Shown here: in pieces, positions 26,070 to 62,591 of the stretch
Position numbering within the stretch: position 1 is the first letter of the stretch
Layout: every line of letters starts with the position of its first letter
Source of the DNA: a virus
Virus record (IMG/VR): IMGVR_UViG_3300010371_000029
Coordinates: 32,001-96,000 of that record
Direction: 5' to 3' (one strand)
Length of the DNA: 64,000 nt
The notes under the pieces: model-generated
What the model was told of the DNA's origin: nothing
Seen by the model: the letters and a program-made list of their open reading frames with translations, nothing else
Databases searched by the model: none
Position numbers and translations under genes: made by a program

Positions 26070-27061
26070 GTAAGTTCCTTTAACATTTTCTCAATCCTGT
26101 TTATATAGGTATGTTCTTTCAAAACAATAGACTGGGCCTTTTGTATATATGGAATACGTTCTTCGGGATTTTTAAGGTAATGGAAAATTTTATCCTCTAG
26201 GTCTTTTACATCATCGAAATATACCACGCTATCCCCGAAAAAGTCAGTGCGGGCCGATTCAATATTCTCGCTTAGGGCGAACCCACCCGATGAAATCACT
26301 TTAAATATACGTTCACTTACGTCAAATCCGAATTCTTTTGAGAGCGGCTCATAAATGCATGGGCAAATTCCGGCGGATTTAAATAAATCTTTTACATTAT
26401 TAGAATCTATCCCGCCCAAATATTGAGAAACTGGCCATAATGAATTTCCATAAATTTTTATATTTAGTTTATAATTTTCGTGACAGAATCTTATTAGATA
26501 ATCCTTCAGATTCCTTGCCTTGTATTCCCAATAACCGCCCACAAATGCTAGGTCGCATATATATTCCTTCTTAACTTCACCTTCTGAATATACTAAAGTG
26601 TCCGCCGCTAGGGGGAGGGATACTACTTTTAGACCCCATTCCGCCCAATATCCCATAGTAATAGGAATCCACCTATCGTGATAATAGGCAAAAACATAAT
26701 GTGGGCGTCCAGTGTGTTTTATTAGACCAGCTACGTTATTCAATTCTTCCTGAGTCGGAATCTGAACAGGCGTAGTTTTGAACTCTTTATTAATCTCCCC
26801 CCAAGTCGAGGCTTGTAGGATTACTTTCAAATTTGGTCTTAGAGCGATAGCTTTATGAATCGCACTATTTATTGCCCACGTTTCCCCAATATATAAATCC
26901 GGTTCAAATCGGTTAAAAACATCAAGAGCGTATTCACGTTTAAGGTCAATGAAACGAAAATCGTGTCCTAAATATGTTGCCGCATTTTTCCAACCTTCCC
27001 TATAAAATCCAGGGGCGGAATTAGCTTTATTGCATAATATCTTCAAAGGCGCTTCCTTCAC
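26066..27061 (-). CDS. glycosyltransferase (CgeB-like, GT-B)
   Basis: 'LPLAAD...DLAFVG...ERIFKVISSGGF.LS...VLKEHTYINR'. Confidence 0.8.
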   Translation of the reverse strand: MKEAPLKILCNKANSAPGFYREGWKNAATYLGHDFRFIDLKREYALDVFNRFEPDLYIGETWAINSAIHKAIALRPNLKVILQASTWGEINKEFKTTPVQIPTQEELNNVAGLIKHTGRPHYVFAYYHDRWIPITMGYWAEWGLKVVSLPLAADTLVYSEGEVKKEYICDLAFVGGYWEYKARNLKDYLIRFCHENYKLNIKIYGNSLWPVSQYLGGIDSNNVKDLFKSAGICPCIYEPLSKEFGFDVSERIFKVISSGGFALSENIESARTDFFGDSVVYFDDVKDLEDKIFHYLKNPEERIPYIQKAQSIVLKEHTYINRIEKMLKELT

Positions 27062-27216
27062 TGTCTAACAAGAAGTGTCTATTAGAATTAACGGTAAAAT
27101 TTGTTCTAAAAAGGTCAATTAATTGTTCGTATGTTATACTACCATCCCAAAGAAGTTTATAATTTTCAGTCATAGGTTCAGGTTTTGGGGCGAGTTATTC
27201 TTAACATTTCATACAT
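27027..27216 (-). pseudogene. frameshifted tenth member of the LL[KR][IL]TR-tag family
   Basis: ATG at 27216 gives MYEMLRITRPKT-stop (27178); removing one base in CCCCAAAA reads on into PEPMTENYKLLWDG...EDIMQ (TAA at 27027). Confidence 0.6.
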
Positions 27217-27937
27217 TAAATATCCCCCGTGCCTTTTCTATATCCTCTAAGGTATCTATGTCCATCACTCGACACCTAGGATTTTTCTTACCTTCTATTT
27301 GGCCGCCCCTCTCTAAAATCATGTTGAAAATTTCAAACAGATATAATTTCTCATTTTCTCTATTAAAACATAATTTCCTAAGGAGACTAAGTTCTTTTCC
27401 GGTAAGAAAGGTTATCTGTGCCCATTTTTCTGCAAAACTATAAGAGAAATTATCAATAAAGTTATTCGCTAATCTAACCCCAATTTCCCTATGATGGTCG
27501 TCAAAACAACCAGAAATATCTATCAGGGCCTTGGAGGTTCCCTCTATATCAATTAATGCGGAGGAATCAAATACAAGGTCCCCAAATATGATTAAGACCT
27601 TATTATTGTTAGTTGTTCTTAATCCGTGGGCTATACTTCGTACTACGTTAGTTTCCTCAAATCTCTCATTCTCTACGGAAACCGCCCTTGATTTTAAAGA
27701 ATTGGCTACTTTGTCCGATTGGAACCCAGTAACAACAACAACTTGGGCAAGAGGATAGTACGAGTTACAATTATCTATTATTCTTTCTAATACTGTTTTT
27801 CCATTAATATCAATCAAGCACTTAGGGCCAAGTGAGCGCATCCTATGGGCCGCACCGGCAGCCGGTATTATTATTGTAAGGTCAGACCCATCATTTTGCG
27901 GTTTAATAGAAGTTACATTTCTTTTATTGGATGACAC
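27209..27937 (-). CDS. NTP transferase (LicC/sugar-phosphate nucleotidyltransferase-like)
   Basis: 'IIIPAAGAAHRMRSLGPKCL', 'FGDLVF', 'DIDTLED'. Confidence 0.85.
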   Translation of the reverse strand: MSSNKRNVTSIKPQNDGSDLTIIIPAAGAAHRMRSLGPKCLIDINGKTVLERIIDNCNSYYPLAQVVVVTGFQSDKVANSLKSRAVSVENERFEETNVVRSIAHGLRTTNNNKVLIIFGDLVFDSSALIDIEGTSKALIDISGCFDDHHREIGVRLANNFIDNFSYSFAEKWAQITFLTGKELSLLRKLCFNRENEKLYLFEIFNMILERGGQIEGKKNPRCRVMDIDTLEDIEKARGIFNV

Positions 27938-28646
27938 CGTTTTGCCGCCCCGCTAATTTTTGGAATACGTAAGCTCGGTTTTTCGCCCAATTTTCATTTG
28001 AAACACTTGAAGTGGAATTTTGTGGATGGGTTGTATGTCTAATTAAACATTCTGGAATATGTTTTAAAAGGTAATGTTCACTCACTCTTAACCAAAGGTC
28101 ATAATCTTCACATGTTCTAAGGTCCGGGTCATATAATCCCGACTTCTCTAAAGCTTCTTTTTTAACTAGAGAATTGTTATTTATGATGCATTCTTGAAGT
28201 AATCGGGTTCTACTATACGGTTCTTTATATTCCCTAATTAATATATTCGTGTCTTCGTGAAAATTTTCATAATCACTATAAACCGCCCCTATAGCTTCAT
28301 CTTCTAAATATTTGACCGATTTACCTACTTTATCTTGAAGATAAATGTCGTCAGCATCTAAAAAACCAAAAATATCCGTAAAACTGCTAGCAAACTCAAT
28401 ACCAATATTTCGGGCAATTGCTGGACCACAAGTAGAGGAAGTATTCTGTAATACAAAAAGACGGCCGGATTCAATATGATTATCGAATTTCTCATTAATA
28501 TATTCAATTGAACCATCTGTAGAATGGTCGTCCACCACAATTACAATCGCTGGATAATTTTGACCCAAAACGCTATTAATCGCATTAGCTATATATTTTT
28601 TATAATTATGATTAGCTATTATTACACTGACAATTCGGGAGGACAT
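27924..28646 (-). CDS. glycosyltransferase family 2
   Basis: 'VSVIIANHN...VVDDHSTD...ARNIG...FLDADD...EDYDLWLR'. Confidence 0.92.
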   Translation of the reverse strand: MSSRIVSVIIANHNYKKYIANAINSVLGQNYPAIVIVVDDHSTDGSIEYINEKFDNHIESGRLFVLQNTSSTCGPAIARNIGIEFASSFTDIFGFLDADDIYLQDKVGKSVKYLEDEAIGAVYSDYENFHEDTNILIREYKEPYSRTRLLQECIINNNSLVKKEALEKSGLYDPDLRTCEDYDLWLRVSEHYLLKHIPECLIRHTTHPQNSTSSVSNENWAKNRAYVFQKLAGRQNGVIQ

Positions 28647-31180: not shown

Positions 31181-31184
31181 TTGT

Positions 31185-32700: not shown

Positions 32701-32968
32701 TTTTCTCTTTACCTATCTTTTCATTGATTTGACGTTCTAACGCTTCCACGTCTGTTTCTTTACGTTTTCCATAAACGGTAAACCCGGCGAAATCTATAAC
32801 TTTGCGGTCAACAATCGGTTCCTCTATTGAAATATCGCTATAAACCCCATCGTAAGTGGCCCGAATGTGTTCTAAATTTTCTATCACATGGTCCAAACTT
32901 CCTAAAAGGTCCGATATCTTAAGCTCTGTAAGTTTCTCTTTAATTTCTAATTTCTTTTTTCTAGCCAT
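32687..32968 (-). CDS. hypothetical protein
   Basis: 93-aa ORF coupled to neighbours. Confidence 0.55.
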   Translation of the reverse strand: MARKKKLEIKEKLTELKISDLLGSLDHVIENLEHIRATYDGVYSDISIEEPIVDRKVIDFAGFTVYGKRKETDVEALERQINEKIGKEKNGNT

Positions 32969-35759
32969 ATATATATTCTAAATCTCGTTTCTCTTTTGTA
33001 GAGCACCGCAGGTTTTCCCAGTGGTTCAAGGCTTGGTTAAGGGACAAACAATAATCTACGACGGTTTGCCGATTAAACGGTTGACCTTTATTAAAACCTT
33101 CTACCCAAGTTCCATAGTTCAAATTTTTAATTAACTGCAAAGTTAAATGGGTATAAACCTTATCCTGAAGTCCCCATATGTTAGCTACGCACCATTGAAC
33201 GAATTGGGCATTATTCAGTCCTGGTGGAACGTTTAAGTTAGGAGTAAAGTTTCGTCGGGGGGAATACCACGTTTCTTTATGGTTCGGCACATCCAAGCTA
33301 TCGAAGTAATCTTCCCATTTTTTAGCCGTTTTATCATAGGTGTAATGTTCCAACGCGCCGGCACGGGAGGCTAGACCCATCTTTGCGCGTTCTTCGGGGG
33401 CTAGATTGAAGAATTGATAAAGCATCTGTACGAATGCTTCATTGTCTGGAAGAGCCCGCATACACCCAGTTTCAGCTTCTTTAAAATAACGTTGCACTGG
33501 AATAGACCACCCATTAACTTTTCTTATTACGTCCGACATTGCTGAATAATTTACTGACATAACGGGTACAGCACATCCAGCGGCCTCTACCTGCGGAATT
33601 CCAAAACCTTCTCCAATGCTATATTGAATATACACATCAAATATATTCATTACTTTTGCGAGAGTTTCCCTGTCTACACCATTATTAACATTTGGCATAT
33701 GAACAGTATTATGCTTACAACGTGGACAAATAGCTTGGGAATCTAGAAAGAATGAAGGAAATACAAATTTACAATTAGTACATGTATAGGTAAAGAGAGT
33801 TTTCGCCCCAACTCCATATTCTTGAATTAATGAACAAAGGTCCCAGCCAACATCGGGGTAACTGGTATGAATATAAAGATAGGTTTTATCAACTAAATCT
33901 TGTCGCCCTAATTCTTTGCAAGTTTGAAGATACTTAGAGAAGCTCTCTATCAGGTCTGGATATAATTTTCTTTTTTGGTTACGCATGACCGTTCCAATAA
34001 TGAAAAGGTCATTCTTAATACCAAATGAGCGACGAAGAGCTTCTTTATCCTGGACCGGTTTAAATATCTCGGTTTCAATCCCAGGCGGGAAAGAACCAAT
34101 TACATTAATATTACCATTACCATCTTTTCTTAATACGTCCGCCCCCCAATCGGTATATGAAGCACATCCATCTAATGTGGAATATGTTTGTAACCATTCG
34201 GTTGCTTGTGGGATAGAATCTACCGTTGGCATCCAAATAAATTTATAGAACGGTCTATATGGAGATTGTGCCCACATACAATCCATCCACCAATCGCGAA
34301 TTGAACAATTATGTACATTTGCATGCTCCAAAACATAACTATTATCTTCTTCAACTTCTATATTATATATTAAACCTTTGTAATCATAATGAAATACCTT
34401 TTCCACAGACGCTAATATTTGATTATTAACGTAATGTGTTTTTCTAGCTCTACGTTTAGATACATAAACTTTCTGAAATCTTTCAAATTCATATTTATTG
34501 CAAACTTTATGTAACTCTTCAGCAGAAGAACCATATCCCTCTACATCAAAAATGTCTCCGTTATTTAATTTGTTTTTTCTGTATTGTATGTTAGTAGGTA
34601 TACCTATACTACCACATAGTAATCTAAAACCGTTTGCAATTTTACGTTTTGCACTACAAAAAGAAACAGTATTATTTTTATAACAACCGTCAGTTCTTAC
34701 TGAACCGCTAATAAAACCACGTTTAACACTTTCATTTGAAATCCAAATTTCTTTGGGAATATTTCCATTACACCAATTTTTTAAGAATTCTGCTAACAAG
34801 CTAGAATTTACATTAACTTGTATAGCAAATCTATCCTTTACTGGATATGCACAACCAACTAAATTTAAATATGATTCAAATAAATTTAAAGCATCTTCTG
34901 CAAATCTTTGTTCTGTGCCATTAAAAGTTATTCCAACTCCTGAATTACTTATATGTCCATCGCCAAATATATAACCCAAAAGTCTAGCAAAATTTTCGTC
35001 TAAAACAATATATTTAAAAATAGGATTACAATTCTTGTTTGGATTAGAACAAATTAAACCATCTTTTTCTATATAATTACTAACATAACTGGAAATATGA
35101 ATAATCTGTTCAAAATCACTTGGTTCATTATTAGGAGGACTTAAACAAATTAAGTCACCCTTTTTTATTTGAGAAATAGGGACAAAAGTTGGTTCGACAG
35201 CATTGTAAATTTTTCTTATACTCTTTTTTTGATTTGTTTGTCGAAGTTTCTTGTGAATTTGTATTGGATGATTACCAGTTAATCTAAGTGAATTTTTACA
35301 TCCATGAAATTTTACTCCGTACATTAATCCTTCAAAATAATTTCTATAAGTAGCGTTTACTCTTCTAAATCTTCCTTTGTGAGTTAAAACAAAATCTCCA
35401 ACTACTATTTCTTCAATTTTTTTATATCCATTTATTGTTAATACCATTTGCCCAGGAGGAGAACATACAACATCTGGCTTAAAGTTTAAACAAGCTTGTT
35501 CAAATTTATGCTTCCCAAATTGATTCTGTATGTCGCTATTGTAAACCTTATTCTCTTCTTCATTTTTGGGAAGAACTCCATAAAATTTCCAAGGTAACAT
35601 ACTAACTCTAGGGTCATTGTCGGAACCATAGGAGCCCAATTCTGCCAACTCGTATTTTCCTGTTTCATAGAGGCGCTTCATTACCTCCATTCCGAAAACA
35701 GAAAAACCTGTATTAAGGAAACTAGCTTCATTAACTAAGAGAATACGCTTTTTATTCAT
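32961..35759 (-). CDS. glycosyltransferase family 4 containing a LAGLIDADG intein
   Basis: 'RNQKRKLYP...EGFGIPQVEAAGC.VPV' GT-B motifs; intein C...VHN/C inside. Confidence 0.9.
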   Translation of the reverse strand: MNKKRILLVNEASFLNTGFSVFGMEVMKRLYETGKYELAELGSYGSDNDPRVSMLPWKFYGVLPKNEEENKVYNSDIQNQFGKHKFEQACLNFKPDVVCSPPGQMVLTINGYKKIEEIVVGDFVLTHKGRFRRVNATYRNYFEGLMYGVKFHGCKNSLRLTGNHPIQIHKKLRQTNQKKSIRKIYNAVEPTFVPISQIKKGDLICLSPPNNEPSDFEQIIHISSYVSNYIEKDGLICSNPNKNCNPIFKYIVLDENFARLLGYIFGDGHISNSGVGITFNGTEQRFAEDALNLFESYLNLVGCAYPVKDRFAIQVNVNSSLLAEFLKNWCNGNIPKEIWISNESVKRGFISGSVRTDGCYKNNTVSFCSAKRKIANGFRLLCGSIGIPTNIQYRKNKLNNGDIFDVEGYGSSAEELHKVCNKYEFERFQKVYVSKRRARKTHYVNNQILASVEKVFHYDYKGLIYNIEVEEDNSYVLEHANVHNCSIRDWWMDCMWAQSPYRPFYKFIWMPTVDSIPQATEWLQTYSTLDGCASYTDWGADVLRKDGNGNINVIGSFPPGIETEIFKPVQDKEALRRSFGIKNDLFIIGTVMRNQKRKLYPDLIESFSKYLQTCKELGRQDLVDKTYLYIHTSYPDVGWDLCSLIQEYGVGAKTLFTYTCTNCKFVFPSFFLDSQAICPRCKHNTVHMPNVNNGVDRETLAKVMNIFDVYIQYSIGEGFGIPQVEAAGCAVPVMSVNYSAMSDVIRKVNGWSIPVQRYFKEAETGCMRALPDNEAFVQMLYQFFNLAPEERAKMGLASRAGALEHYTYDKTAKKWEDYFDSLDVPNHKETWYSPRRNFTPNLNVPPGLNNAQFVQWCVANIWGLQDKVYTHLTLQLIKNLNYGTWVEGFNKGQPFNRQTVVDYCLSLNQALNHWENLRCSTKEKRDLEYIYG
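34308..35465 (-). mobile_element. intein (386 aa) with LAGLIDADG homing endonuclease
   Basis: Starts CSPPGQMVLT, block B 'LTGNHP', 'LLGYIFGDG' and 'SGSVRTDG', ends 'YNIEVEEDNSY...VHN' followed by Cys+1. Confidence 0.92.
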
Positions 35760-36210
35760 AGTAGCGACTTAATTTATTTATCGCGGCTTTAAGGATTTTT
35801 GAAACTTTTTTGCGGCTGAAACCAACATTTTCCGCAATTTCATTAAGGGCACAGCCCTCAGTAAACCGTAATATGATAATTCTGTTTTCAGTCTCACTTA
35901 GAACGCCAATTAGATTTAATGGAGGTTGTTCGACTAAAGTAAATGAACGTTGTACTTCAAATTTCTTTTTTACTTCTTTCTTAAGGGTCCTACCTATACA
36001 AATACTGGCATATGCGGCCCACTCAACCTGCCTATTCGGGTTGAAAGACCTAATCGCCAAAAGTAGCGCGATAGCCCCGACTTGGCACATGTCTTCAAAG
36101 GAACACGATGTTCCACCAAACTTCTTAGCTTGAGTCACGACTAACCCAAAATTCTCCTCCAAAAGTCGTGACTCAAGCCGAAGCTCTTCTTTAGACGGCT
36201 GCCGCTTCAC
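35752..36210 (-). CDS. phage sigma-70-family RNA polymerase sigma factor (regions 2 and 4)
   Basis: 'LVVTQAKKF...FEDMCQVG..ALL.A..SFNP...YA..CI' and 'LSETENRIIILRF...LNEIAENVGFSRKKV'. Confidence 0.85.
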   Translation of the reverse strand: MKRQPSKEELRLESRLLEENFGLVVTQAKKFGGTSCSFEDMCQVGAIALLLAIRSFNPNRQVEWAAYASICIGRTLKKEVKKKFEVQRSFTLVEQPPLNLIGVLSETENRIIILRFTEGCALNEIAENVGFSRKKVSKILKAAINKLSRYYE

Positions 36211-36542: not shown

Positions 36543-37064
36543 TTATTCTCCAGCTACAATTTCTAAGTTATAAAGCATTCCATATCCTACCTCTACCTTT
36601 TCTTTTGCGGCTAATCTCAAAAAATCAGGGGGAAAATTTTCAGATTTTGCTTGTACGAATATATTATTCAATACAGTTTCTTTATTAAAATCTTCCTCTT
36701 CTCGCGGTGGAGACAAGGGTAATCGACCTACTTCCTCGTTTTTATGATTGTAATAAAAAATAAATCGGGGCGAGTAGTTAATTTTTTTACAAAGTTTTTC
36801 AATGTGGCATTGAATTACGGGCCGCACCGAATAAAATGGACAAACTACAAAGGACGGGTCTTCACAAGTTACATCTCCTATAAAAAAGCCAGGGTCACCA
36901 GTAATCTCTAAGTCAGTATGGTCAATCACGGTATAATTAAAGAATGACTCTGAAAACTTATCATTTTTGGGTAATCTAAGACTAATATAATCCGGTTCTT
37001 CTTCTTTTACAATTACCCGATAGTCATGCTTTGTAAGAAGTTCTCTGACCTTCTGGTCAATCAC
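36543..37064 (-). CDS. hypothetical protein
   Basis: GTG start at 37064 overlapping the stop of the dnaE C-terminal gene. Confidence 0.55.
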   Translation of the reverse strand: MIDQKVRELLTKHDYRVIVKEEEPDYISLRLPKNDKFSESFFNYTVIDHTDLEITGDPGFFIGDVTCEDPSFVVCPFYSVRPVIQCHIEKLCKKINYSPRFIFYYNHKNEEVGRLPLSPPREEEDFNKETVLNNIFVQAKSENFPPDFLRLAAKEKVEVGYGMLYNLEIVAGE

Positions 37065-38626
37065 AGTTGAACCACCTTGTTTATTATGAACGAATCTTTC
37101 TTTGAATCTTTGACACCAGCCAATAATACTGTGTTGCCTTCGTACAATAAGTTGCCGAATTCCGAATATTCGTTGCACCATAAAACACAATTTCTATAAG
37201 AGCCGTTAATGTCGCTAATTTCTACAAACCCCATTAACCGCCCCTTATTCTCACCTTTTTTAACCGGATATGTTCTCAATGTATCAATATTACAAGCTAC
37301 TACCAAATTCATCTTACTTGGTGAAGCATCTATATCGGAAACTAAATGTGTGGCTGCGCTTATATCACAGGATTCCACCGCACTTACAGTAACCGGAACC
37401 CCTAATAATTGTTTTTCAGATTGGGCCATCATTAAAGGGTTATCATCAAGGGACATGGGTGGGCATCTTAACGTATTGGCTAAATCCATCAAAATTTTAA
37501 CTCTGTTCTTCGTGGCCGCGCCGCCGCCCTCTTTTTTGGGGGCCGCACACTGTTCTATAAGGTCGGCCAAGTTACTATTTTCTTTTAATTTTGTTTTTAC
37601 GAAACCTACTTCTTTCTCTGTTAAACTATTAAGTTTACTTAACTCAAATTCCATCCTCTTTCGCGATATACCTAAATAATCTAAGGACCCAGATTCTATA
37701 AGTCCTAACGCAATATCAACACTAACATTGTAGAGTAGATTGAACAAAACATCAATCCAGTCTTTAAAATCTCTTAATAATTCTACCAACTTCTCAGTTG
37801 CTCGTCCGCCCATTCCTTTAATGTTTCCGAGCCCAAAGTACACAACCCCGTTGATAACGTCAAAATCCAGATTACCCTTTCTTAGGTCCGGTCCTCTTAC
37901 TTCAATCCCCATACTCTTACAATTATAGACTAATTCGTTAACTTCCTCAAGGGGTCTTTGCTTCTCGCGGGCCATTTTTAACCAAGATTTGGCCCATGGT
38001 AATGGAAAATGTACTTTTATAAAAGCAGAAAAATATGATTCCAGCCCGTAACCGATAGCGTGGGCTTTATTGAATGAATATCGTTGCGATTTCTCAATCC
38101 AAGAGAAAATCTCGGCGGCTATCTCTGGTGAAACAATTTTGGCTTTGGCTGCCCCTTCTATAAAATCCTTCTTACAAGACGCCATTAAATCGGCTAATTT
38201 CTTTCCCATAGCCTTTCTTAAATTATCAGCTTGTACAAGATTAAATCCAGCTAAATCTTGCGCTATTCTCATCGCCTGCTCCTGGTATACCAGGATAGAG
38301 TTCGTGGGTTCAAGAATAGGGCGAAGTGCTTCGTGAATGTAAGAGGGTTGTTCTTCACCCCGTTTAACTTTTACATACTTATCCGCCATACCGCTTTCAA
38401 GACAGCCGGGGCGAAGTATACTTATTAGTGCTGCAAGTTCTTCAAGACACCTAGGACTACTTCGTTTAGCCCAGGTCATTCCAAGAGGCTTTTCTAATTG
38501 AAATACACCTTTTGTATTTCCAACACAGATTAGGTCCCATGTCGCTGGACAATTAAGGTAAACTTTCTTAATATCGAAATGGCCTTCTTCGTAGAAACAG
38601 CCACAATCAAACGATATAAATCTCAT
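37061..38626 (-). CDS. dnaE: DNA polymerase III alpha-like, C-terminal half (fingers, HhH, OB)
   Basis: 'TKGVFQLE', 'RPG', 'LVYQEQAM', 'ADNLRKAMGK', 'YSFNKAHA', 'FGLGNIKGMG', 'EKQLLG'. Confidence 0.92.
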   Translation of the reverse strand: MRFISFDCGCFYEEGHFDIKKVYLNCPATWDLICVGNTKGVFQLEKPLGMTWAKRSSPRCLEELAALISILRPGCLESGMADKYVKVKRGEEQPSYIHEALRPILEPTNSILVYQEQAMRIAQDLAGFNLVQADNLRKAMGKKLADLMASCKKDFIEGAAKAKIVSPEIAAEIFSWIEKSQRYSFNKAHAIGYGLESYFSAFIKVHFPLPWAKSWLKMAREKQRPLEEVNELVYNCKSMGIEVRGPDLRKGNLDFDVINGVVYFGLGNIKGMGGRATEKLVELLRDFKDWIDVLFNLLYNVSVDIALGLIESGSLDYLGISRKRMEFELSKLNSLTEKEVGFVKTKLKENSNLADLIEQCAAPKKEGGGAATKNRVKILMDLANTLRCPPMSLDDNPLMMAQSEKQLLGVPVTVSAVESCDISAATHLVSDIDASPSKMNLVVACNIDTLRTYPVKKGENKGRLMGFVEISDINGSYRNCVLWCNEYSEFGNLLYEGNTVLLAGVKDSKKDSFIINKVVQL

Positions 38627-39661: not shown

Positions 39662-40294
39662 CTAACTATTAAAATTTATTTTTGGTTGTATTTTACGAGC
39701 GATTGTTAGGAATTTAATTAAAATCTGAGCCGTTATTTTTACATCTACCAACGCATCATGCAAATTACCTATTGATTCTATTTTCATATAATCCTTTAAT
39801 GTGCCAAGTTTTAGATTCGGTACTGCTTTAGAATTTTCAAAGAAATAATTAGCCAAAAACAAAGTGTCATAAGGTATGAAGTAGAATAAAGCGGCCTCTC
39901 CCCTTTCCTTGTTCCAAGGCCCATATTTCTGACACATTTTGTTTATAAATTTACTGTCAAAGTTTACAATATTGTGCCCCGCTGGAATTGGACGGGTCCA
40001 GGCTTGCCCCGGCTTGTAATTAAAACGTTCTACGTATAGGGCGAAGTCTGCCCAAACTGTTTGAGGTAATGGTGCTGTTGAAAGCTTCTCTAATGAATGC
40101 CCGTTTATCTCTAAGGCTTTAGGGTCGGCGGTCTCAGGCGTTAAAGGACGAATTAAAGAATTGAATTCAGAGTTAGGAATAATTGTAAGATTCTTAGAAT
40201 TGATTGCTACTGCGGCGATTTGAACTATTTCGTGTTTTTCATGGTCCAGACCGCTTGTTTCCACATCGTAGCACACGATTGTATTGTAATTCAT
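39662..40294 (-). CDS. DEDDh 3'-5' exonuclease (DnaQ/epsilon-like)
   Basis: 'YDVETSG', 'GHNIVNFD', 'YDT', 'HDALVD'. Confidence 0.92.
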   Translation of the reverse strand: MNYNTIVCYDVETSGLDHEKHEIVQIAAVAINSKNLTIIPNSEFNSLIRPLTPETADPKALEINGHSLEKLSTAPLPQTVWADFALYVERFNYKPGQAWTRPIPAGHNIVNFDSKFINKMCQKYGPWNKERGEAALFYFIPYDTLFLANYFFENSKAVPNLKLGTLKDYMKIESIGNLHDALVDVKITAQILIKFLTIARKIQPKINFNS

Positions 40295-40542
40295 TTTTCC
40301 TCAGGAAATATGTCGATTGGCCCGTTGTATTCATGACATTTATTCTCCCAATGTATTATTGTGTCTTCAATTGTAGCTTGAAAAGAGTTATTAAAATAAT
40401 TTTTTGAACCTATTAAAATTACATCATATTTTACTAATTTTTTCTCCTTATCTATAGAAAGAACACGAAATATATAGAAACTATCTTGGAAATATTTAGG
40501 AAAAGGCCATTTAGACCGTGTGATTTTTAGAAGTCGCTGCAT
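40291..40542 (-). CDS. small protein, LL[KR][IL]TR-tag family
   Basis: Starts MQRLLKITR. Confidence 0.75.
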   Translation of the reverse strand: MQRLLKITRSKWPFPKYFQDSFYIFRVLSIDKEKKLVKYDVILIGSKNYFNNSFQATIEDTIIHWENKCHEYNGPIDIFPEEK

Positions 40543-40833
40543 TTAGAATCTTTCAATTCTAGTATAATTCTTCTGTGCTTCTTTATAACTACTCCCAAAA
40601 ACATCTAAAGGACCGGTATATTCGTTATATTCCTTTCCCCATCTTGCCTCAAATATGTCTATCCTGTCTCTAAAGCCCGAACAGTAATAACCTTTAGCTC
40701 TCCAAGGAGTTCTTTTATACATACCGTCGTAATAAATCATTCCGTCTTTACGGAACAATATTCTAAAGATGAAGTCGCTAGACTCAAAATATGTGGGCAA
40801 CTTAAAACGGGTTATTCGTAGTAGTTGATTCAT
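40543..40833 (-). CDS. small protein, LL[KR][IL]TR-tag family
   Basis: Starts MNQLLRITR. Confidence 0.75.
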   Translation of the reverse strand: MNQLLRITRFKLPTYFESSDFIFRILFRKDGMIYYDGMYKRTPWRAKGYYCSGFRDRIDIFEARWGKEYNEYTGPLDVFGSSYKEAQKNYTRIERF

Positions 40834-41080
40834 CGGGAAAATTTGGTATTTCGTTTGGTGGGCAGTCTTTTATTCCGTAATAACTATTATCATTATATAA
40901 GTTTAAAAAGGTAGATAATCTATCTTCCCAATTTGTAGGACAAGGTTTATTTTCTTTTATATAAAATACATTATAATAAACAACTCCGTCTATTATATCA
41001 TTAATACGATAATAGCATTGGCTACATTTCAAATATTTAGGGAGAATTTGAGTTCTCGTTAATTTAAGTAATGCCTGCAT
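40802..41080 (-). CDS. small protein, LL[KR][IL]TR-tag family
   Basis: Starts MQALLKLTR. Confidence 0.75.
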   Translation of the reverse strand: MQALLKLTRTQILPKYLKCSQCYYRINDIIDGVVYYNVFYIKENKPCPTNWEDRLSTFLNLYNDNSYYGIKDCPPNEIPNFPDESTTTNNPF

Positions 41081-42833
41081 TGACCATCTCGCTCGCCATT
41101 TGAATTTTATCTAAAATAGCAACTCCAAGCACATCAAATTTTACTAAACCCGCCGCCTCGCCGGAGGATAAATCATATCCGCAAATCATTTCGCCCGTTC
41201 GTTCATCCAAAATCATAGGGGCGACTGTATCAAGAGGTTCCGAAGATATGACCAAACCACACGCATGTCGGCTTTTATTAACGAGGGTTCCTTCAAGGGC
41301 TATAGCTTGTTTGAAGTAATCGGCGTATTCCCCGACTATATCATTTCCTTCTAATTGGGCCAATCCCTCAAAATCCTCTGGTTTATGTTCTAAGCACCAC
41401 CGTATAATGGAGGAATCCCCGGTTTCTTCCTCCATTTCTTGCAAGTCGCCCATTATACGTTGTTCGTCTGGGATGCCACGGGTTAAATTATTAATCTCCT
41501 CGAATGATAAGGCACCATAAGCGCGAATTACCGCTTTTAGGGCGGACCTTCCTTGTAATCGTCCGAACGTTACTATTTGTGATACTTTATCCCTACCATA
41601 TTTAGTGCGAATATATTCAATAACGCTGTCGCGTCCAGATACCGGAAAATCAGTATCTATATCGGGGAGTGCAACTCTATCTTTCGTGTTACGCCCCGCG
41701 TTATAGAACCTCTCAAAATATAGACCGTACTCGATAGGGTCGCAACTAGTAATACCTATTAAATAAGCAGTGAGACACCCACTAACACTACCTCTACCCA
41801 CCCCAGGAAGTTGCCCCTGAGATTCGGCATATCGTATGTAATCTTCCACAATTAAGAAATAATCTGCCAGCCCAGCATTCTCAAAAACTTCAAGTTCGTG
41901 CTTAATTCTTTCTACATATTCTCCCTCTTTTTCTACAGATATTATCCCTTTTATTTTATTTCTCCAACCCGCCCGGCATAATTCCCTAAGTTGTTCATTA
42001 GGTTCGGCCACCGGAAATTTGGGCAACAACGTTTTACTAAGAATGGAAAAGGTTTCACAGCGGTCAGCTATTTGGGCCGCGCCGGCTATTTCTTGTTCTG
42101 ATAGAACTTTCCTTACCTCATCTTCTCCCCGGAAATGATTGGTTCCTTTAGGAACCTTATCTATCGTCACACCTAAATCATTAGCAAGTATTACTCGATG
42201 GTTTATATCATCTTCTGGTTCGCAGTATAGACAATTAAACAGTCCCACGGTTTGTAATTTAAGTTCAGAGGCGGTTTCCCGCATTATATCAGCGGTAAGC
42301 TCACAATCGCCGTCTACCCCCAGATAGAACCTGTCCCCAAAAATATCCCGAAATAGATTACTTTCTTTAATTAAATCTTCTTTAAAATCCGATTTTAAAG
42401 CTTGTTTAAGACTCCAGGGGTCCGAACCGTAATACGGTCCATCGAATAGGATAGCTCCTATGGAACTATCTCGGTATCCATTTATACAAATCAACCCTTT
42501 GGAATAGTTAGAAAGAATTTCATGTGTAGCTTGCGGCTCTTTCTTAAAATTCTCAGGTTTATTACTTTGGGATACAATTTTTAATAAATTTTTGAACCCG
42601 GCAAGTGTACTCGCCAATAATAGTACGGTGGGACCTCCCATTAGGGCTTGTTCCAACCCAAAGATTGGCTTAACCCCCTTTTTCTGCGCCGACTGATAGA
42701 ATTCTACCGCCCCTGATAGTGAGTTTAAATCGGTTAGAGCGACAGTTTCGCCCTTTTCAATTAGGGCATCTGGTGGACTTAGACCATAATTCAAACTGTA
42801 GAAAGAATGGTTACGTAGGTTTATAAACTTCAT
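41064..42833 (-). CDS. dnaE: DNA polymerase III alpha-like, N-terminal half (PHP plus palm)
   Basis: 'LRNHSFYSL', 'ALTD', 'GRGSVSG', 'FERFYN', 'PDIDTDF', 'RHACG', 'GLVKFDVLG'; ATG at 42833. Confidence 0.92.
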   Translation of the reverse strand: MKFINLRNHSFYSLNYGLSPPDALIEKGETVALTDLNSLSGAVEFYQSAQKKGVKPIFGLEQALMGGPTVLLLASTLAGFKNLLKIVSQSNKPENFKKEPQATHEILSNYSKGLICINGYRDSSIGAILFDGPYYGSDPWSLKQALKSDFKEDLIKESNLFRDIFGDRFYLGVDGDCELTADIMRETASELKLQTVGLFNCLYCEPEDDINHRVILANDLGVTIDKVPKGTNHFRGEDEVRKVLSEQEIAGAAQIADRCETFSILSKTLLPKFPVAEPNEQLRELCRAGWRNKIKGIISVEKEGEYVERIKHELEVFENAGLADYFLIVEDYIRYAESQGQLPGVGRGSVSGCLTAYLIGITSCDPIEYGLYFERFYNAGRNTKDRVALPDIDTDFPVSGRDSVIEYIRTKYGRDKVSQIVTFGRLQGRSALKAVIRAYGALSFEEINNLTRGIPDEQRIMGDLQEMEEETGDSSIIRWCLEHKPEDFEGLAQLEGNDIVGEYADYFKQAIALEGTLVNKSRHACGLVISSEPLDTVAPMILDERTGEMICGYDLSSGEAAGLVKFDVLGVAILDKIQMASEMVNAGIT

Positions 42834-42916
42834 TTTTGTCCACTTATCATCCAGCACCAAGCCACAGTCGCGCAAATAACGGCTACAGCAGCAAACACAC
42901 ATTCAGGTGTATTCAT
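42830..42916 (-). CDS. 28-aa hydrophobic micro-protein
   Basis: MNTPECVFAAVAVICATVAWCWMISGQK; ATGA overlaps at both ends. Confidence 0.45.
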   Translation of the reverse strand: MNTPECVFAAVAVICATVAWCWMISGQK

Positions 42917-44149: not shown

Positions 44150-44159
44150 TATTTACTCC

Positions 44160-44423: not shown

Positions 44424-44629
44424 ATCCAATAATCTCCACATTCTAAACCTTTAGTAATAACATAAATTGAGTAATCAGTAGTATAAACTGTCCCACTCCA
44501 TTTTGATAATAATCTACATTTAACATAACCTCCTTTAAATTCAATAATCGTAATATAATAATATTGAGATTCAAAATTAAGAGGAATTTCATTCTCGGAT
44601 GGTCTAGTTATCCTTAATAATTCTAACAT
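44420..44629 (-). CDS. small protein, LL[KR][IL]TR-tag family
   Basis: Starts MLELLRITRP. Confidence 0.75.
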   Translation of the reverse strand: MLELLRITRPSENEIPLNFESQYYYITIIEFKGGYVKCRLLSKWSGTVYTTDYSIYVITKGLECGDYWI

Positions 44630-44632
44630 GTT

Positions 44633-47279: not shown

Positions 47280-47788
47280 ACTATAACTTTACCTAATCTA
47301 CTAAAATTATCTCTAAATCTATCTGGCCTATTTCCCCAATATATAAATGCACAAGCCATAGGAGCACCTTTTTTAACTATTTCTCCGTTATAATAAAATT
47401 TAATCCTAGGTGTTCTAATAAAACATATAGCCGCCGCCGAATAAAATATTATTTCCCAATGTTTTGTATTAGTGGCAACTGGTATAAGTGCTATAACTTC
47501 TGAACCTGTATTATTAGCCTCTAAACATTTATTAATCCAATCCTTAATAGTGGTTTTATCTAAATTCCGCCCATATGGGGGGTTAACGAATATGGTCCGC
47601 GCAAAAGACCAATCTTTATTTAAACCATTATTTTCTTTATTAAAATGAAAGGTTGCTGGGACCGTTGAATAGTCGTTTGAGCAAGGGTCCAAGTCTATAT
47701 AACCAAATACATTTAGGATTAATTTTATATATTCTGGAGGAGTATTCCAATCCTTATTTTTAGAGACTGATTCTCTATTAATTGTCAT
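47270..47788 (-). CDS. phage N6-adenine DNA methyltransferase
   Basis: 'WNTP', 'DLDPC', 'FVNPPYG'. Confidence 0.9.
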   Translation of the reverse strand: MTINRESVSKNKDWNTPPEYIKLILNVFGYIDLDPCSNDYSTVPATFHFNKENNGLNKDWSFARTIFVNPPYGRNLDKTTIKDWINKCLEANNTGSEVIALIPVATNTKHWEIIFYSAAAICFIRTPRIKFYYNGEIVKKGAPMACAFIYWGNRPDRFRDNFSRLGKVIVCL

Positions 47789-49565
47789 AAATAAACAGTC
47801 TCTCTATTCCTTCCTTTGACCCCGTATCCTTTGTTAGACTGCTCGTAACTCGCTTCTCCCAAACACACTTAAAGTCGCTAGGAGCCACATATTCGCTCAC
47901 GAATACGTTCGCTTTGCAAGCAACTTTTCTTGTCCATTCCCAAAATTCGTCGGAGTTGAATCCACCTTTATAAGGGGTTGTACCTCTGTAAGGAGGGTCA
48001 CAATTATGAACCAAAATATTGCTAACATTAAACAAATCATCTTTATCTACGTCTAAATCAAAAACTTCTCCTTCATAAGGAATTTCATTTATACCTCTAA
48101 TTCTTGTTAAGATATGGTTATTTATTATCCGACGAGAACTTCTAAATTTAATTGCTGGAACTTCATATCCTAATTTTATTATATCTTCAGATGCAAAATA
48201 AATATCAAAAATTCTTCCCGCTCTTCTTTTTATAGATGGTTTAAGACCACATCTTAGTGCAATAGTATACATTTGTTCAGCTAATTTAGGACTTACTGTG
48301 CTTCCACATAATTTAGCTCTATTCCTTTCATATATTTCTAAACCTCCATCCCCCCTTAACCATCCTTTAAGGATTTCTATTTGATAATTTATTGGAAATG
48401 TCAATATATTATCATTTAGAGCTTTAAAATGTGCTGTACCAGTTATATAATCGTATAAAAATTTGGCGGCAACGGTAGAGTGTAATCTAACTTGAGCAAC
48501 AGATTGCCAAGGCATTTCTTTAACAATAGCTTCTACGCCAAACGCAGTTTTTATACAATGACAAGCATCTGCTACCCATGTATCTAATTCATCCATACAA
48601 AAACTTAGTAATATAGAATTTGGTATTCCATTAGCAAATTGTGAATGCCCCTCCGCTAAATAATAACCAAAAAATCTAAATAATTCACTGCAAATGTTTA
48701 ATATTGGATATTTTTGTATGAAAGGTGAATAATATTCTTTATTAATTTCCAAATCTACAGGATTTTCAATTCCTCCTAACGGAATTAAAACATAATCTCC
48801 TATTTTTAAATCACTAGCTCGGGTTGCTTTTTTCATGCTCCATAAATCTTCATTTGTTCTAAAATCTTGTCTTTTTTCAATATTTCTGCCGGGTATAGAA
48901 ATAATTCTATGTTCTGGAGTAACTTCTATTTTATCTATAAGCCCTTGAATCTTTAATGATAATAAATTCCCTCTATATATTTTAGACATTTTATTTAAAA
49001 CACGTCTACCTCCGTGAAGAACATCATTTATCTGTATGTCTTTAATTTCTTTAAATTTTTCATCAATAGTTTTTATTTTAGCGTTGGGTGGTAAGCAATA
49101 ACAAAGTGACCCTGTGGGAATCGGGAGGGACTTATAATCGTAATTAGTGAAAAATACATCTGTCAAATTGGGCACTTGAGCCATAATATTTCTATAGGCT
49201 TCCGCCCCGTAATTTCGCTTTCCTTGTCCATCACGGGCATATCCGCTCCACCACTTGCCGGAATAGCTTAGATTAAAACCCGTATACCCAATTTCAGCGG
49301 CCGAATAACATTCTTGATTATAATGGATATTATTATATTCTTCTTCACTAACCTCTTCTGGGGGAACCCATCCTCCTTGGAGCGCTTTCCACATTTCAAT
49401 TAAATGAAAATGTTTATCGTTACCAATCCTAGGACCTTTAACCTTATCAATCATATTCGCGCCGCCCACGAATGGCTCGACCCACAACTGGCCTTCTTTT
49501 CTATATGGGTCTATGACCGCAAGAATTTCTTTTGCATGACGAGCTTTGGAACCTTGATACTTCAT
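47778..49565 (-). CDS. DNA adenine methyltransferase (D12 class) containing an intein
   Basis: 'MKYQGSK', 'VEPFVGGAN', and catalytic 'CY/CDPPY' split by the intein. Confidence 0.9.
   Translation of the reverse strand: MKYQGSKARHAKEILAVIDPYRKEGQLWVEPFVGGANMIDKVKGPRIGNDKHFHLIEMWKALQGGWVPPEEVSEEEYNNIHYNQECYSAAEIGYTGFNLSYSGKWWSGYARDGQGKRNYGAEAYRNIMAQVPNLTDVFFTNYDYKSLPIPTGSLCYCLPPNAKIKTIDEKFKEIKDIQINDVLHGGRRVLNKMSKIYRGNLLSLKIQGLIDKIEVTPEHRIISIPGRNIEKRQDFRTNEDLWSMKKATRASDLKIGDYVLIPLGGIENPVDLEINKEYYSPFIQKYPILNICSELFRFFGYYLAEGHSQFANGIPNSILLSFCMDELDTWVADACHCIKTAFGVEAIVKEMPWQSVAQVRLHSTVAAKFLYDYITGTAHFKALNDNILTFPINYQIEILKGWLRGDGGLEIYERNRAKLCGSTVSPKLAEQMYTIALRCGLKPSIKRRAGRIFDIYFASEDIIKLGYEVPAIKFRSSRRIINNHILTRIRGINEIPYEGEVFDLDVDKDDLFNVSNILVHNCDPPYRGTTPYKGGFNSDEFWEWTRKVACKANVFVSEYVAPSDFKCVWEKRVTSSLTKDTGSKEGIERLFIYDN
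48003..49097 (-). mobile_element. intein (365 aa) with LAGLIDADG homing endonuclease
   Basis: Starts CLPPNAKI, 'VTPEHRI', 'FFGYYLAEG', 'KGWLRGDG', ends 'FDLDV...ILVHN' followed by Cys+1. Confidence 0.93.
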
Positions 49566-49759
49566 GGAGAAACATCCATGTCCCGCGAAGAATTCCAAAT
49601 TTCACGCCCGCTTGGATTTTTAATTATCACCATAGCGGTCCAACCATGCTTTTTAAAAACATTTTTAGCGGCGGTTAATGCTTCATCTAGACCAAAATGT
49701 TGACTATCTTCATAATACGTAGCATCCTGAAAGGCAACTATTACTTTAAAACTTCCCAT
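49562..49759 (-). CDS. hypothetical protein
   Basis: Short ORF (MGSFKVIVAF...) coupled to neighbours. Confidence 0.5.
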   Translation of the reverse strand: MGSFKVIVAFQDATYYEDSQHFGLDEALTAAKNVFKKHGWTAMVIIKNPSGREIWNSSRDMDVSP

Positions 49760-57264: not shown

Positions 57265-57481
57265 GAGGGGCCTCTCTATTTAACCATTCTATAAATTTAT
57301 CTAAATACTCCCAACTTTCTGGTTGCCCCTCTGGTACAGAAAAAGATTTATGATGATTATATCCATATACAACATTATCTTTTATTCTAGTTATAGTTAC
57401 AAAATCTACACCTGTTTTAAAAACATATGTACCAATTAAATCAGAATAATTTGGTCTAGTTATTTTGAGTAAATTATACAT
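57254..57481 (-). CDS. small protein, LL[KR][IL]TR-tag family
   Basis: Starts MYNLLKITRP. Confidence 0.75.
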   Translation of the reverse strand: MYNLLKITRPNYSDLIGTYVFKTGVDFVTITRIKDNVVYGYNHHKSFSVPEGQPESWEYLDKFIEWLNREAPHKI

Positions 57482-57702
57482 TAACTAATTTTCCAAATTC
57501 TACCACTTTTTAAAAGTCTGTGAAATTCTTCTAAAGTGGCCGACCTTTTTAAATCTGGACTGTTACTATGAAATCCATAAATTCTTTCATTATCTACGTT
57601 TTGAATAATTAGGTCCACGCCATATAATGCAAGTAGATTTGACCGATAAGTCCCAATAATTGAATCCCTAGGATTCCTAGTTAATTTTAATAAGGCGTTC
57701 AT
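57481..57702 (-). CDS. small protein, LL[KR][IL]TR-tag family
   Basis: Starts MNALLKLTR. Confidence 0.75.
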   Translation of the reverse strand: MNALLKLTRNPRDSIIGTYRSNLLALYGVDLIIQNVDNERIYGFHSNSPDLKRSATLEEFHRLLKSGRIWKIS

Positions 57703-58748
57703 TTAAATAAACTCAACAACTTTCCATAAATTATATCGGTTTCATCCGGGTTTTCTTTAAGATAAATGCGGAACTTTTCTTCGCCCTGAAACTTCTGCTC
57801 AACGCCAGCGGCGTCTTTGTGTTTGAACCATGCCCCACTTAATTCCACCACCCCATATTCTTTGGCACACCCTATAATCTCACTAATCGTATCCACACCT
57901 TCACCGTACCGAATTATCATTTCGGGCTTTTGGAAAGGAGGGCCTAGGGAACAACAGTGAACTTCCCAATGAACCCTTTGACCTATAGGGGCTTCCCCCT
58001 CTTTTTTAGAGATTTTTTCCATATAGGTGGCTTCAAGCTTAGTATCGGCTTGGTAAGCTATGGCAAAGCCTCCCTTCTCTGTTCTAGTTTTCCCCTTACC
58101 TGATGGATTTCCCATCATTTGGGTAATAGCTACTACGAAATTTTTATTTACCGGGAGTATCTGGGCAACTTCCTGGCAAAATTTGCTTAAGAGCGAATTA
58201 ACCTCGGCTCGTCGTCCAGCTTCCCCAAAGTCAGACTTTTCCCCAGTTGACCTAGGTGTGAGCATGGGTATGGAATCTATAATTAATACGCAACCGTGGT
58301 CATTCTTTAAAAAATCCAATCCCATCCCTAAGTAATCTTCGGCATAATAAATTACTGGTTCGCCATTAGGAAATTCTTCAGTGGGGGGGAGCTTGTGGGA
58401 ACGAATTAAGTGAAATTTATCAAAATCAAATCCCGCCCAATCTAAATTCTTCTTAGAAATTCTTCCTTCCACGTCAATGTAATAAATGGTCCGCCCACCA
58501 TATTCGGGCTTTTGGCAATTTGCGGCGAACTTTAGCGCTAAGGTACTTTTGCCCATCTTGGGCATACCGGTTAAAGTAATCCAAGAGCCTTCTTGCGCGC
58601 CTCCATATATTGATATATCAATAGCTGGAGTCATAGGTACAATCATAGGGGGCGATTCCATCACCTTGCGAGGGTCAGTAAAAACGCCGGTCCCATATTT
58701 TTTTAGGATTGACTTATGAGCTTCTTCAGAAAGGGATTTCTGTATCAT
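57699..58748 (-). CDS. recA: RecA/UvsX-like recombinase
   Basis: 'GMPKMGKST', 'YIDVEG', 'IIDSI', 'ITQ', 'GGFAI.Y', 'GAWF'; exact start uncertain. Confidence 0.9.
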   Translation of the reverse strand: MIQKSLSEEAHKSILKKYGTGVFTDPRKVMESPPMIVPMTPAIDISIYGGAQEGSWITLTGMPKMGKSTLALKFAANCQKPEYGGRTIYYIDVEGRISKKNLDWAGFDFDKFHLIRSHKLPPTEEFPNGEPVIYYAEDYLGMGLDFLKNDHGCVLIIDSIPMLTPRSTGEKSDFGEAGRRAEVNSLLSKFCQEVAQILPVNKNFVVAITQMMGNPSGKGKTRTEKGGFAIAYQADTKLEATYMEKISKKEGEAPIGQRVHWEVHCCSLGPPFQKPEMIIRYGEGVDTISEIIGCAKEYGVVELSGAWFKHKDAAGVEQKFQGEEKFRIYLKENPDETDIIYGKLLSLFK

Positions 58749-58986
58749 CTGGAACCGATTTGTTATATAATCTTTTTGGTAATTCAAAATAAGGTCCAAA
58801 TATTTCAGAACTAAAATCTTCTAAACAAAAAAATCTATGTGAACCATCAATAGTTAATAAAACAGTGAAATCTTCAATATTTATATCTTCCACAGTATAA
58901 ATATACTCTTGTCTATAAATAGAATCACCAATTTGGACAGGAAAATCAAGTTTGGGCGGTCTAGTAATTTTTAACAATTCTTTCAT
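58726..58986 (-). CDS. small protein, LL[KR][IL]TR-tag family
   Basis: Starts MKELLKITRP. Confidence 0.75.
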   Translation of the reverse strand: MKELLKITRPPKLDFPVQIGDSIYRQEYIYTVEDINIEDFTVLLTIDGSHRFFCLEDFSSEIFGPYFELPKRLYNKSVPDDTEIPF

Positions 58987-61458: not shown

Positions 61459-61737
61459 TTATCCTTTATTTCTTCGTGGGCAGCCGTAAACCAATAAAGC
61501 ACGTATAGCTATAGCCGACACTTTTCTTAATACGTCTCTAGCCTGTAAATCGGAAGGATTATCAGTCCAAGCTTCTTGAGCCCTTCGTGTATAAACCCCC
61601 AAAGTGACTAATTGTCCTTCAACCCCATAATCTTCCTTATCAGCCCGGCCAATTTCAGATAACTTGGAAATATAATCAAGTTCTTCATCAATCGCTGATA
61701 TAACTTCTGGAGTAAGTTTTAGCTCTACATTTTTCAT
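61459..61737 (-). CDS. hypothetical protein (all-alpha NTP pyrophosphatase-like)
   Basis: 'AIDEE..Y...LRKVSAIAIRAL..YG.P.R'. Confidence 0.45.
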   Translation of the reverse strand: MKNVELKLTPEVISAIDEELDYISKLSEIGRADKEDYGVEGQLVTLGVYTRRAQEAWTDNPSDLQARDVLRKVSAIAIRALLVYGCPRRNKG

Positions 61738-62135
61738 ACTATTTTTCCTTCATGGACATATTTTTGTTTCTGCTCCGGGCTCATTCCAGCTATTTTCTTT
61801 AAACGTTTAATCTTTTCTTTACCTAGAGGAGCCTCCTTTTTTAGCCGCCGCATACCGGGCGGCAATTTACTTGACGACTTTTTAATTCGTTTTTCCGCAT
61901 CCTGTCTAATCTTCTCCTCTAAACCATATCGACCCAATTTTTTAGTGTTCTCCTCTGCTAATTTACCCACTGTGGTAGGATTTCCATTAATAATGATGCC
62001 CACCCCCGAGTAAACCCGGAATAAAGTATTTTTACCACAACCGGGGCATTTTTTGAGGGGTTTATAATCCGCAATAGACGAAACTTGTTCCAATTGGTGC
62101 TTACACGCACCACATTCATATTCATATCGAGGAAT
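61734..62135 (-). CDS. FmdB-family zinc-ribbon protein with ATT start
   Basis: (M)PRYEYECGACKH...CPGCG...; TAAGGAG 8 nt upstream of ATT; in-frame TGA two codons upstream. Confidence 0.8.
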   Translation of the reverse strand: MPRYEYECGACKHQLEQVSSIADYKPLKKCPGCGKNTLFRVYSGVGIIINGNPTTVGKLAEENTKKLGRYGLEEKIRQDAEKRIKKSSSKLPPGMRRLKKEAPLGKEKIKRLKKIAGMSPEQKQKYVHEGKIV

Positions 62136-62147
62136 ATATCACACTCC

Positions 62148-62591
62148 TTAAAGAGGCCCACTCCAGGGACCCTGTGGATAATTTCTTATTAATTCGTAAC
62201 GATTTTCTATAAAAACTTCATTTCGGTTCAAAACCTGGCATCTTATACCATTTCGTCTTAGCCACATAGTTAAGTCTAATCTGCCAAAAATTCTAAAACT
62301 ACGGCCCTGATGCCTTGTGGCTAATTTAAGTAAGGCCCACTTCTTAAATATATGGTGGTAATCGCGCAAACGCGAACCACAGTATGTTTGAAGATAATAA
62401 CTATCCTGACTTCCTCTTACAACTTGAACAAAGTTCAAATAACGTTGTCTTATTCTGAAAGAGTTAGTATCAGGGTCATCCTGTAAGGTAAATAGATAAT
62501 CGCCCACATGAATATTAGTTTGGGGATATCTATAGAAATTTGGAAAATCAAGTTCAATGGGTGGTCTAGTAATCCTAAGCAAAGCTTGCAA
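62148..62591 (-). CDS. protein of the LL[KR][IL]TR-tag family (147 aa, TTG start)
   Basis: Starts MQALLRITRPP. Confidence 0.72.
   Translation of the reverse strand: MQALLRITRPPIELDFPNFYRYPQTNIHVGDYLFTLQDDPDTNSFRIRQRYLNFVQVVRGSQDSYYLQTYCGSRLRDYHHIFKKWALLKLATRHQGRSFRIFGRLDLTMWLRRNGIRCQVLNRNEVFIENRYELIRNYPQGPWSGPL

Follow-up and report, generated by a model that had tools for sequence, protein, structure and literature searches.

The DNA analysed here (the window) is a stretch of 64,000 nucleotides of viral origin, bases 32001-96000 of the 130,268-base single-contig virus record IMGVR_UViG_3300010371_000029. Along its minus strand are ten sites at which a reading frame opens with the same short peptide, M-x-x-[LM]-L-[KR]-[IL]-T-R. 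We call this peptide the tag and the remainder of each protein its body. An earlier note on this DNA, made from the letters alone, had proposed that the tag is an address label on otherwise unrelated small proteins, comparable with the signal that loads the internal proteins of phage T4 into the capsid. We find that the ten sites belong to a lineage-specific and strongly expanded family of small proteins, with 28 copies in this genome and at least seven in a distant relative. The proteins are built in three parts: a fixed N-terminal peptide, a proline-rich linker of variable length, and a fast-diverging, aromatic-rich body predicted to be a small β-barrel.

A six-frame regular-expression scan of the window for tag residues 4-9, the hexapeptide [LM]L[KR][IL]TR, gave exactly ten matches, all on the minus strand and all where the earlier note had placed them; none of the six frames holds a further match. 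The start codon lies exactly three codons before the hexapeptide in every case (nine ATG, and TTG at 62591). Nine of the sites head intact genes (Table 1). The lengths of these nine (69-147 residues), the grouping of the sites into seven separate loci, and starts that overlap or abut the upstream stops (from a 32-nucleotide overlap to a 3-nucleotide gap) all agree with what had been described. The tenth site, at 27216, had been listed with the others; the tag is there, but the gene is not intact, as its open reading frame (ORF) has only 12 codons and ends after the C4A4 run. A second ORF, in another frame just past this broken tag, is probably its former body: by eye, a homopolymer run shorter by one base would join the two.

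Table 1. Tag genes of the window, with the broken copy and the ORF next to it; the letters A to D stand for sub-families of the bodies
Feature	Position in window	Strand	Remarks
48-residue ORF, other frame, just past broken tag	27027..27173	-	probable former body of the broken copy
Broken tag copy	27178..27216	-	MYEMLRITRPKT, stop directly after the CCCCAAAA run (C4A4)
Tag gene, 83 residues	40291..40542	-	MQRLLKITRS; sub-family B
Tag gene, 96 residues	40543..40833	-	MNQLLRITRF; sub-family B; AlphaFold model 1
Tag gene, 92 residues	40802..41080	-	MQALLKLTRT; sub-family B
Tag gene, 69 residues	44420..44629	-	MLELLRITRP; borderline body link to sub-family B (hhalign score 15.0)
Tag gene, 75 residues	57254..57481	-	MYNLLKITRP; second tag gene downstream of the 366-residue ORF (57699-58799)
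Tag gene, 73 residues	57481..57702	-	MNALLKLTRN; no detectable body link to sub-families A-D
Tag gene, 86 residues	58726..58986	-	MKELLKITRP; body linked to sub-family C (hhalign score 21.6)
Tag gene, 93 residues	60934..61215	-	MKQLLKITRP; sub-family C
Tag gene, 147 residues	62148..62591	-	TTG start, (M)QALLRITRP; longest member, extra C-terminal part

The whole-genome scan that the earlier note had suggested yielded 23 strict matches, every one of them on the minus strand and placed at a start codon (ATG, TTG or CTG), so the motif is N-terminal wherever it occurs. When the genome was shuffled 50 times, matches averaged 0.12 and never exceeded 1. Five more copies came from looser patterns and the gene map, namely MNQILKITRP, MKSILKLTRP, MYNVLRITRP, MYRLLKATRP and the decayed MREILKITAE, for a genome total of 28 copies, 25 of them 69-147 residues long and three truncated (12, 32 and 38 residues). 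With 25 of the approximately 180 ORFs of at least 60 residues, the family accounts for about one in seven of the phage's genes. The N-terminal position of the tag is forced in 23 of the 28 copies, because between the upstream stop and the tag methionine there is no other in-frame start. The same is true of five of the seven tag genes on the foreign contig described below.

For the statistics of the tag we used 32 full-length members, whose consensus is M-x-x-[LIMV]-L-[KR]-[ILV]-T-R-(P). Leu5 and Thr8 are invariant (32/32) and Arg9 is nearly so (31/32); position 6 is Lys or Arg only, and position 7 is Ile, Leu or Val in 31 of the 32. Pairwise identity is 75% over residues 4-9 and 15% over the bodies, which had rightly been said to diverge strongly. 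The codons beneath these residues vary freely, again as reported: Leu5 uses six codons, Thr8 four, and Arg9 is written AGA, AGG, CGC, CGT or CGG. Selection therefore acts on the tag peptide, and we rejected the idea that the tag is a DNA repeat. Tag genes have a G+C fraction of 0.308, compared with 0.380 in 155 other genes (Mann-Whitney p = 2e-8), and the bodies contain 15.7% aromatic residues, compared with 10.3% (p = 4e-6). Both the AT-richness and the aromatic character noticed earlier are thereby borne out.

Residue 2 is large in all 32 members and never small. Methionine aminopeptidase leaves the initiator methionine in place when residue 2 is large, and for this reason the tag proteins most likely keep theirs. 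Beyond the tag, proline makes up 20.8% of residues 10-18 and 4.0% of the residues that follow (p = 5e-21), and this proline-rich stretch between tag and barrel varies in length. Two familiar kinds of short motif were considered and rejected. The tag is not a sliding-clamp-binding motif, since it has no aromatic end and Gln in only 4 of the 32 members, and it is too short and too polar for a signal peptide.

Relatedness and predicted fold of the bodies

When the first ten residues are cut, several pairs of bodies are still collinear by BLAST (E from 2e-10 to 1e-3), and phmmer sorts the tag-less bodies into small clusters and many singletons. A body-only hidden Markov model seeded with six array members recruits nine tag proteins, including one foreign one, and then stalls; it recruits no non-tag ORF out of 653. 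Between sub-families the hhalign probabilities are low in absolute terms (24% or less). Cross-sub-family scores of 15 or more were reached in 21 of 109 real comparisons as against 6 of 218 with composition-matched shuffles (Mann-Whitney p = 6e-8). Against 56 further small genes of this genome, all 224 scores stayed below 15 (maximum 14.7). For nine tag proteins, a link to another sub-family exceeds the 99th percentile of the shuffles. About 10 of the 32 full-length members, among them the product of 57481-57702, remain unlinked. Neither Pfam nor PHROGs gave any of the nine intact window members a match above the curated cut-off or below E = 0.01, and no Pfam match at E up to 1 exceeded its cut-off.

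Two members, one of sub-family B (model 1, the 40543..40833 protein) and one of sub-family A (model 2), were modelled with AlphaFold on alignments of 24 and 32 paralogues. Both models have the same order of elements (a short strand, a long β-hairpin, a fourth strand and a short helix) and a mean predicted local distance difference test (pLDDT) score of about 73. The first ten residues score 59-61 in both, compared with about 80-92 in the core; for model 1 the values are 59 for the tag and 86-92 for the core. The tag is helical in one model and coil in the other, both models being derived from shallow paralogous alignments. In model 1, residues 4-9 form a short amphipathic helix.

Comparison with known structures points to one type of fold. 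Most of the 50 best chains for model 2 (all-against-PDB alignment, VIA) are SH3-like barrels, headed by a NusG KOW domain (2xhc_A, Z 5.8, rmsd 2.2, 53 residues aligned) and followed by NdhS, Spt5 KOW, RfaH and Tudor domains. Seventeen chains reach a Z of at least 5, and these are mostly SH3-like. Model 1 has weaker matches of a like kind (best Z 4.1). Most of the structural matches begin at about model residue 10-16, past the tag. Foldseek returned nothing from PDB or BFVD at E up to 0.001, and the scores from a search of the ESM Atlas, up to 0.81, are at chance level. A homodimer prediction with two copies of the 92-residue member scored 0.04, which is uninformative in either direction.

In the two modelled members, then, the body is predicted to be a small β-barrel of SH3/KOW/Tudor type, and the tag would lie outside the barrel core on a proline-rich tether. 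The predicted fold matches that of the NusG C-terminal domain, Spt5 KOW, the RfaH C-terminal domain and UvrD/PcrA Tudor. However, the tag bodies do so only at Z below 6 and have no sequence match to those Pfam families, and the likeness of fold shows no function. From their sequences, most of the bodies appear to belong to one very divergent paralogous family. The tag does not sit on otherwise unrelated proteins, as had been supposed, because the bodies form cross-linked sub-families and the two models share a barrel topology. The earlier note had itself pointed out that its proposal would suffer if the bodies were a single ordinary paralogous domain with the motif as its first structural element. 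A single paralogous domain is largely what we find, but the motif is not a visible part of it.

Genome position and relatives

All 28 tag copies are found in the minus-strand, non-structural arm of the genome, together with replication genes. Among the replication genes, pieces of polymerase III alpha and proteins resembling SSB and a primase can be recognised by eye; database search supports a DnaB-like helicase, with matches that are all below 27% identity. Within the window, the start of the tag gene at 40802..41080 overlaps the end of a DNA polymerase III alpha-like ORF. The plus-strand arm (genome 7.1-56.2 kilobases, kb) encodes a large terminase laden with intein or HNH elements, a virion protein, tail-fibre-like proteins and a protein of 2483 residues. 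According to the gene map, this packaging, virion and tail arm holds no tag gene.

A divergent gap at about 6.9-7.1 kb contains a sigma-70 promoter on the minus strand (genome 6905-6933) that matches the consensus at 12 of 12 positions (TTGACA, 17 bases, extended -10 TG-n-TATAAT); it is the only 12/12 match in the 8 kb scanned. Downstream come a 58-residue gene and then the tag array, with 13 tag genes within 6 kb and five more in the next 5 kb, so that 18 of the 28 copies are packed into about 11 kb. This position and the one consensus promoter suggest that the tag genes are expressed early by the host polymerase. The two ends of the contig (genome 1 and 130268) join into an uninterrupted minus-strand ORF of about 310 residues, with no terminal repeat. 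The ends join in frame, and the minus arm is therefore continuous from base 1 to base 130,268. The record probably represents a whole genome that is either circular or circularly permuted.

In an exhaustive profile search, 1.84 billion representative proteins yielded 22 matches: 19 of the phage's own proteins, one foreign protein of 90 residues (P0020), and two long low-complexity repeat proteins that we set aside as bias. The metagenome contig that encodes P0020 (L003, 20 kb examined) carries seven tag genes. Apart from the family, a single protein shared with the present genome is detectable over those 20 kb. It is a GT2-like protein (window 45499-46413, minus; L003 12256-13077) with 31% identity between the two copies (E = 3e-30), and the pair match Pfam PF00535 at E = 8e-5 and 2e-3, both below the curated cut-off. 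Because the tag has been kept in L003, which over that stretch shares just one other detectable gene with this phage, it appears from these sequences to be older than the remaining similarity of the two phage genomes. On L003 the GT2-like gene lies beside a gene for an NAD-dependent sugar epimerase/dehydratase, just past the tag array.

Other searches brought no further relatives. GenBank phages gave no match to an 8-kb megablast query, scans of IMG/VR with two family proteins and the 366-residue ORF (57699-58799) found no relative, and a word-indexed protein search returned four proteins only, all from this genome. A degenerate DNA pattern for the tag matched 28 loci in IMG/VR and at least 120 loci in prokaryote genome contigs. 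There is no array among the matches listed, and these single loci look like chance. In the literature, a full-text search for tag strings gave only papers that are unrelated by their titles. A keyword search for a comparable phage family gave none that is relevant by title or by the start of its abstract.

The DNA of the phage was matched in a soil metagenome, its likely source. One rhizosphere RNA library and a further soil metagenome contain short pieces that are 85-100% alike. Short contigs of this second soil metagenome lie over two tag genes (window 40314-40574 and 40965-41131) and differ from them by about ten substitutions each and by small insertions and deletions of in-frame size. Close variants of the tag family therefore circulate elsewhere. 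The RNA library has short contigs only, with no depth over 40000-41333 and 44002-44668, and is uninformative on expression.

Possible roles of the tag

We tentatively favour the reading that the tag is a putative linear docking or handling motif for one common partner, and we regard this as possible, if short of probable. It is favoured because the invariant positions include polar residues, the bodies have no co-conserved partner for them, the tag is predicted to lie outside the fold on a proline-rich tether, and it has been kept across distant phages. The conservation at peptide level, the N-terminal position, the place outside the predicted fold, the linker and the retention in a second phage all fit the address label proposed earlier; the supposed unrelatedness of the bodies is not supported, and the T4-type loading is disfavoured.

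Under the docking reading, the tag proteins would be made early from transcripts of the host RNA polymerase. Tandem duplication would have let their barrels diversify, probably to meet targets that differ or change, in the manner of host-takeover and anti-defence proteins. A single cytoplasmic partner common to all of them, whether a factor of the host or a phage protein that is conserved, would read the tethered tag. In a concrete version, a host AAA+ unfoldase or protease would recognise the tag, which could give all members a common timer or allow barrel-bound cargo to be handed over. There is a precedent in the N-terminus of lambda O, which acts as a transferable degron (PMC7804408). Like lambda O and other N-terminal signals for ClpX, the tag is a short motif at a free N-terminus. 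Its polar-hydrophobic-hydrophobic-basic-hydrophobic run resembles what we take to be one class of ClpX signal, a comparison made by eye with a low-information consensus.

Several points weigh against a docking role. No partner was found and no binding test was successful. Low pLDDT from 24-32 paralogous rows is weak evidence for a free peptide, and the tag could instead lie packed against the barrel or a neighbour. With one motif between them, 28 proteins would compete for a single partner. The early timing depends on gene position and one consensus promoter, and the likeness to an unfoldase recognition signal is presumptive.

A further-reaching version would make the family an adaptor library: each barrel would grip a different host protein, for example a component of a defence system, and the tag would hand the complex to a single machine. 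That machine would be the host unfoldase or protease, leading to destruction, or the prohead, leading to injection. We think the library and its machine, which form one joint claim, unlikely. If true, such a library would combine a modular address label with a variable binder, an arrangement that is not known from phages other than in the three internal proteins of T4.

The main rival to docking is a purely structural role, in which the proteins share an ordinary paralogous domain and the tag is its most constrained structural piece, serving for example as a barrel cap, folding nucleus or oligomerisation arm and not as an address. The relatedness of the bodies is what this explanation would lead one to expect, from BLAST pairs that reach E = 2e-10 without the tag, through the excess of hhalign scores of 15 or more over shuffles and over other small genes (21/109 vs 6/218 and 0/224), to the single topology of both models. 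The amphipathic helix of residues 4-9 in model 1 could moreover cap the barrel. However, the invariant positions include the polar residues Thr8 and Arg9, and the bodies contain no co-conserved residue to partner them; outside the tag, all that the members have in common is a Gly and an aromatic residue. The tag is predicted with lower confidence than the core and with a secondary structure that is inconsistent between the two models, it is set apart from the first strand by a proline-rich linker whose length varies, and most fold matches exclude it. We judge a purely structural tag to be somewhat unlikely.

Capsid loading, the analogy drawn by the earlier note, fares worse. The internal proteins of T4 are small diversified proteins that are thought to counter host defences and are loaded into the capsid through a short conserved N-terminal peptide (PMC3012670). 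The tag family shares with T4 IPI-III this design of a conserved N-terminal peptide of about ten residues on small, diversified phage proteins. If the tag were a targeting sequence of the T4 type, it would load its proteins into the prohead to be injected with the DNA, and injection would benefit small anti-defence proteins that act early. But the differences are many. The tag bodies are mostly one paralogous barrel family, there are 28 copies rather than three, and all 28 belong to the presumably early, non-structural arm, where 18 follow closely on the consensus sigma-70 promoter.

The cleavage motif of the T4 prohead protease ends the targeting peptide and is also found on head and scaffold proteins. 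In contrast, the tag ends in T-R-P with no acidic, cleavage-type residue, and no head protein shares it: even the looser pattern L-[KR]-x-T-R has only three plus-strand matches, none of them at the start of an ORF. Proline is poor as the residue after a cleavage site, and the tag has proline at position 10. PHROGs and Pfam searches with 20 plus-arm proteins recognised a terminase, a virion protein, a tail fibre and HNH nucleases, most of the proteins having no match; a prohead protease was not recognised among the 20, although its absence is not proven by this. The T4 analogy is disfavoured by the position of the genes, the lack of an acidic tag end and the lack of a head-arm protein with the motif at its N-terminus, and we consider it very unlikely. 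Short fixed N-terminal motifs on large, fast-diverging families of small-domain proteins are also known from the oomycete RxLR and Plasmodium PEXEL effectors. There the motif follows a signal peptide and acts in export from a eukaryotic parasite, whereas nothing in the tag family indicates export.

The tag could also be a sequon for a modifying enzyme encoded by the phage, whose acceptor would be Thr8 or Arg9. A Thr-Arg pair that is invariant and lies exposed in an N-terminal peptide would suit an acceptor site. Sugar-nucleotide and glycosyltransferase genes occur in both phages, and the sole non-family protein that this genome shares with the 20 kb of L003 is a weak GT2-like match. This co-occurrence, however, hangs on a single gene of a very common class, and there is no sign that the GT2-like enzyme acts on proteins and not on DNA or surface sugars. 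A sequon seems to us highly improbable.

Least probable of all, though by a small margin, is that what the conservation serves is not the protein but the mRNA or the start of translation, for example by keeping the 5' coding end A/U-rich and unstructured or by preserving a site where a regulator binds: the tag codons are A/T-rich and biased (AAA in 18/27, ACT in 19/27, AGA in 13/27) and many copies lack an obvious Shine-Dalgarno sequence, but Arg9 swaps between CGN and AGR, Leu between CTN and TTR and Thr among all four of its codons with the residues fixed, and because codon families switch while residues stay there is no constant nucleotide string at the tag.

Small early genes that expand by paralogy are already known from phages, and so are small diversified proteins that share an N-terminal label. 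Their combination, the size of the family and the degree of contrast between tag and body are not known from elsewhere. A tag that stays fixed while the rest drifts, in two distant phages, marks a strongly selected peptide function, for which the databases and papers searched offer no explanation. Should it prove to be a docking label, it would serve as a short and transferable handle on some central machine, of the host or of the phage, that soil phages use in early infection, and the barrels would be a ready set of natural binders on one tiny scaffold. Should it prove to be a folding element only, the family would be a clean example of accordion-like expansion of early genes.

Other features of the two phages

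Inside the main array are two small minus-strand genes (genome 5641-5829 and 6345-6545) whose products open with G-[FY]-Y-W-V-[RK], followed by conserved Trp residues. They look like a second small paralogous pair, one that lacks the tag. The polymerase III alpha-like gene appears to be split between the ORFs at 41064-42902 and 37061-38626, with other genes between them. Two long minus-strand ORFs of the window (32961-35759 and 47778-49598) look by eye as if interrupted by intein-like inserts, with a Cys-led block ending in His-Asn-Cys, and the plus arm carries several HNH endonuclease genes. A sigma-factor-like protein, likewise recognised by eye, is encoded in the non-structural region of both phages (window 35752-36210, L003 15171-15812).

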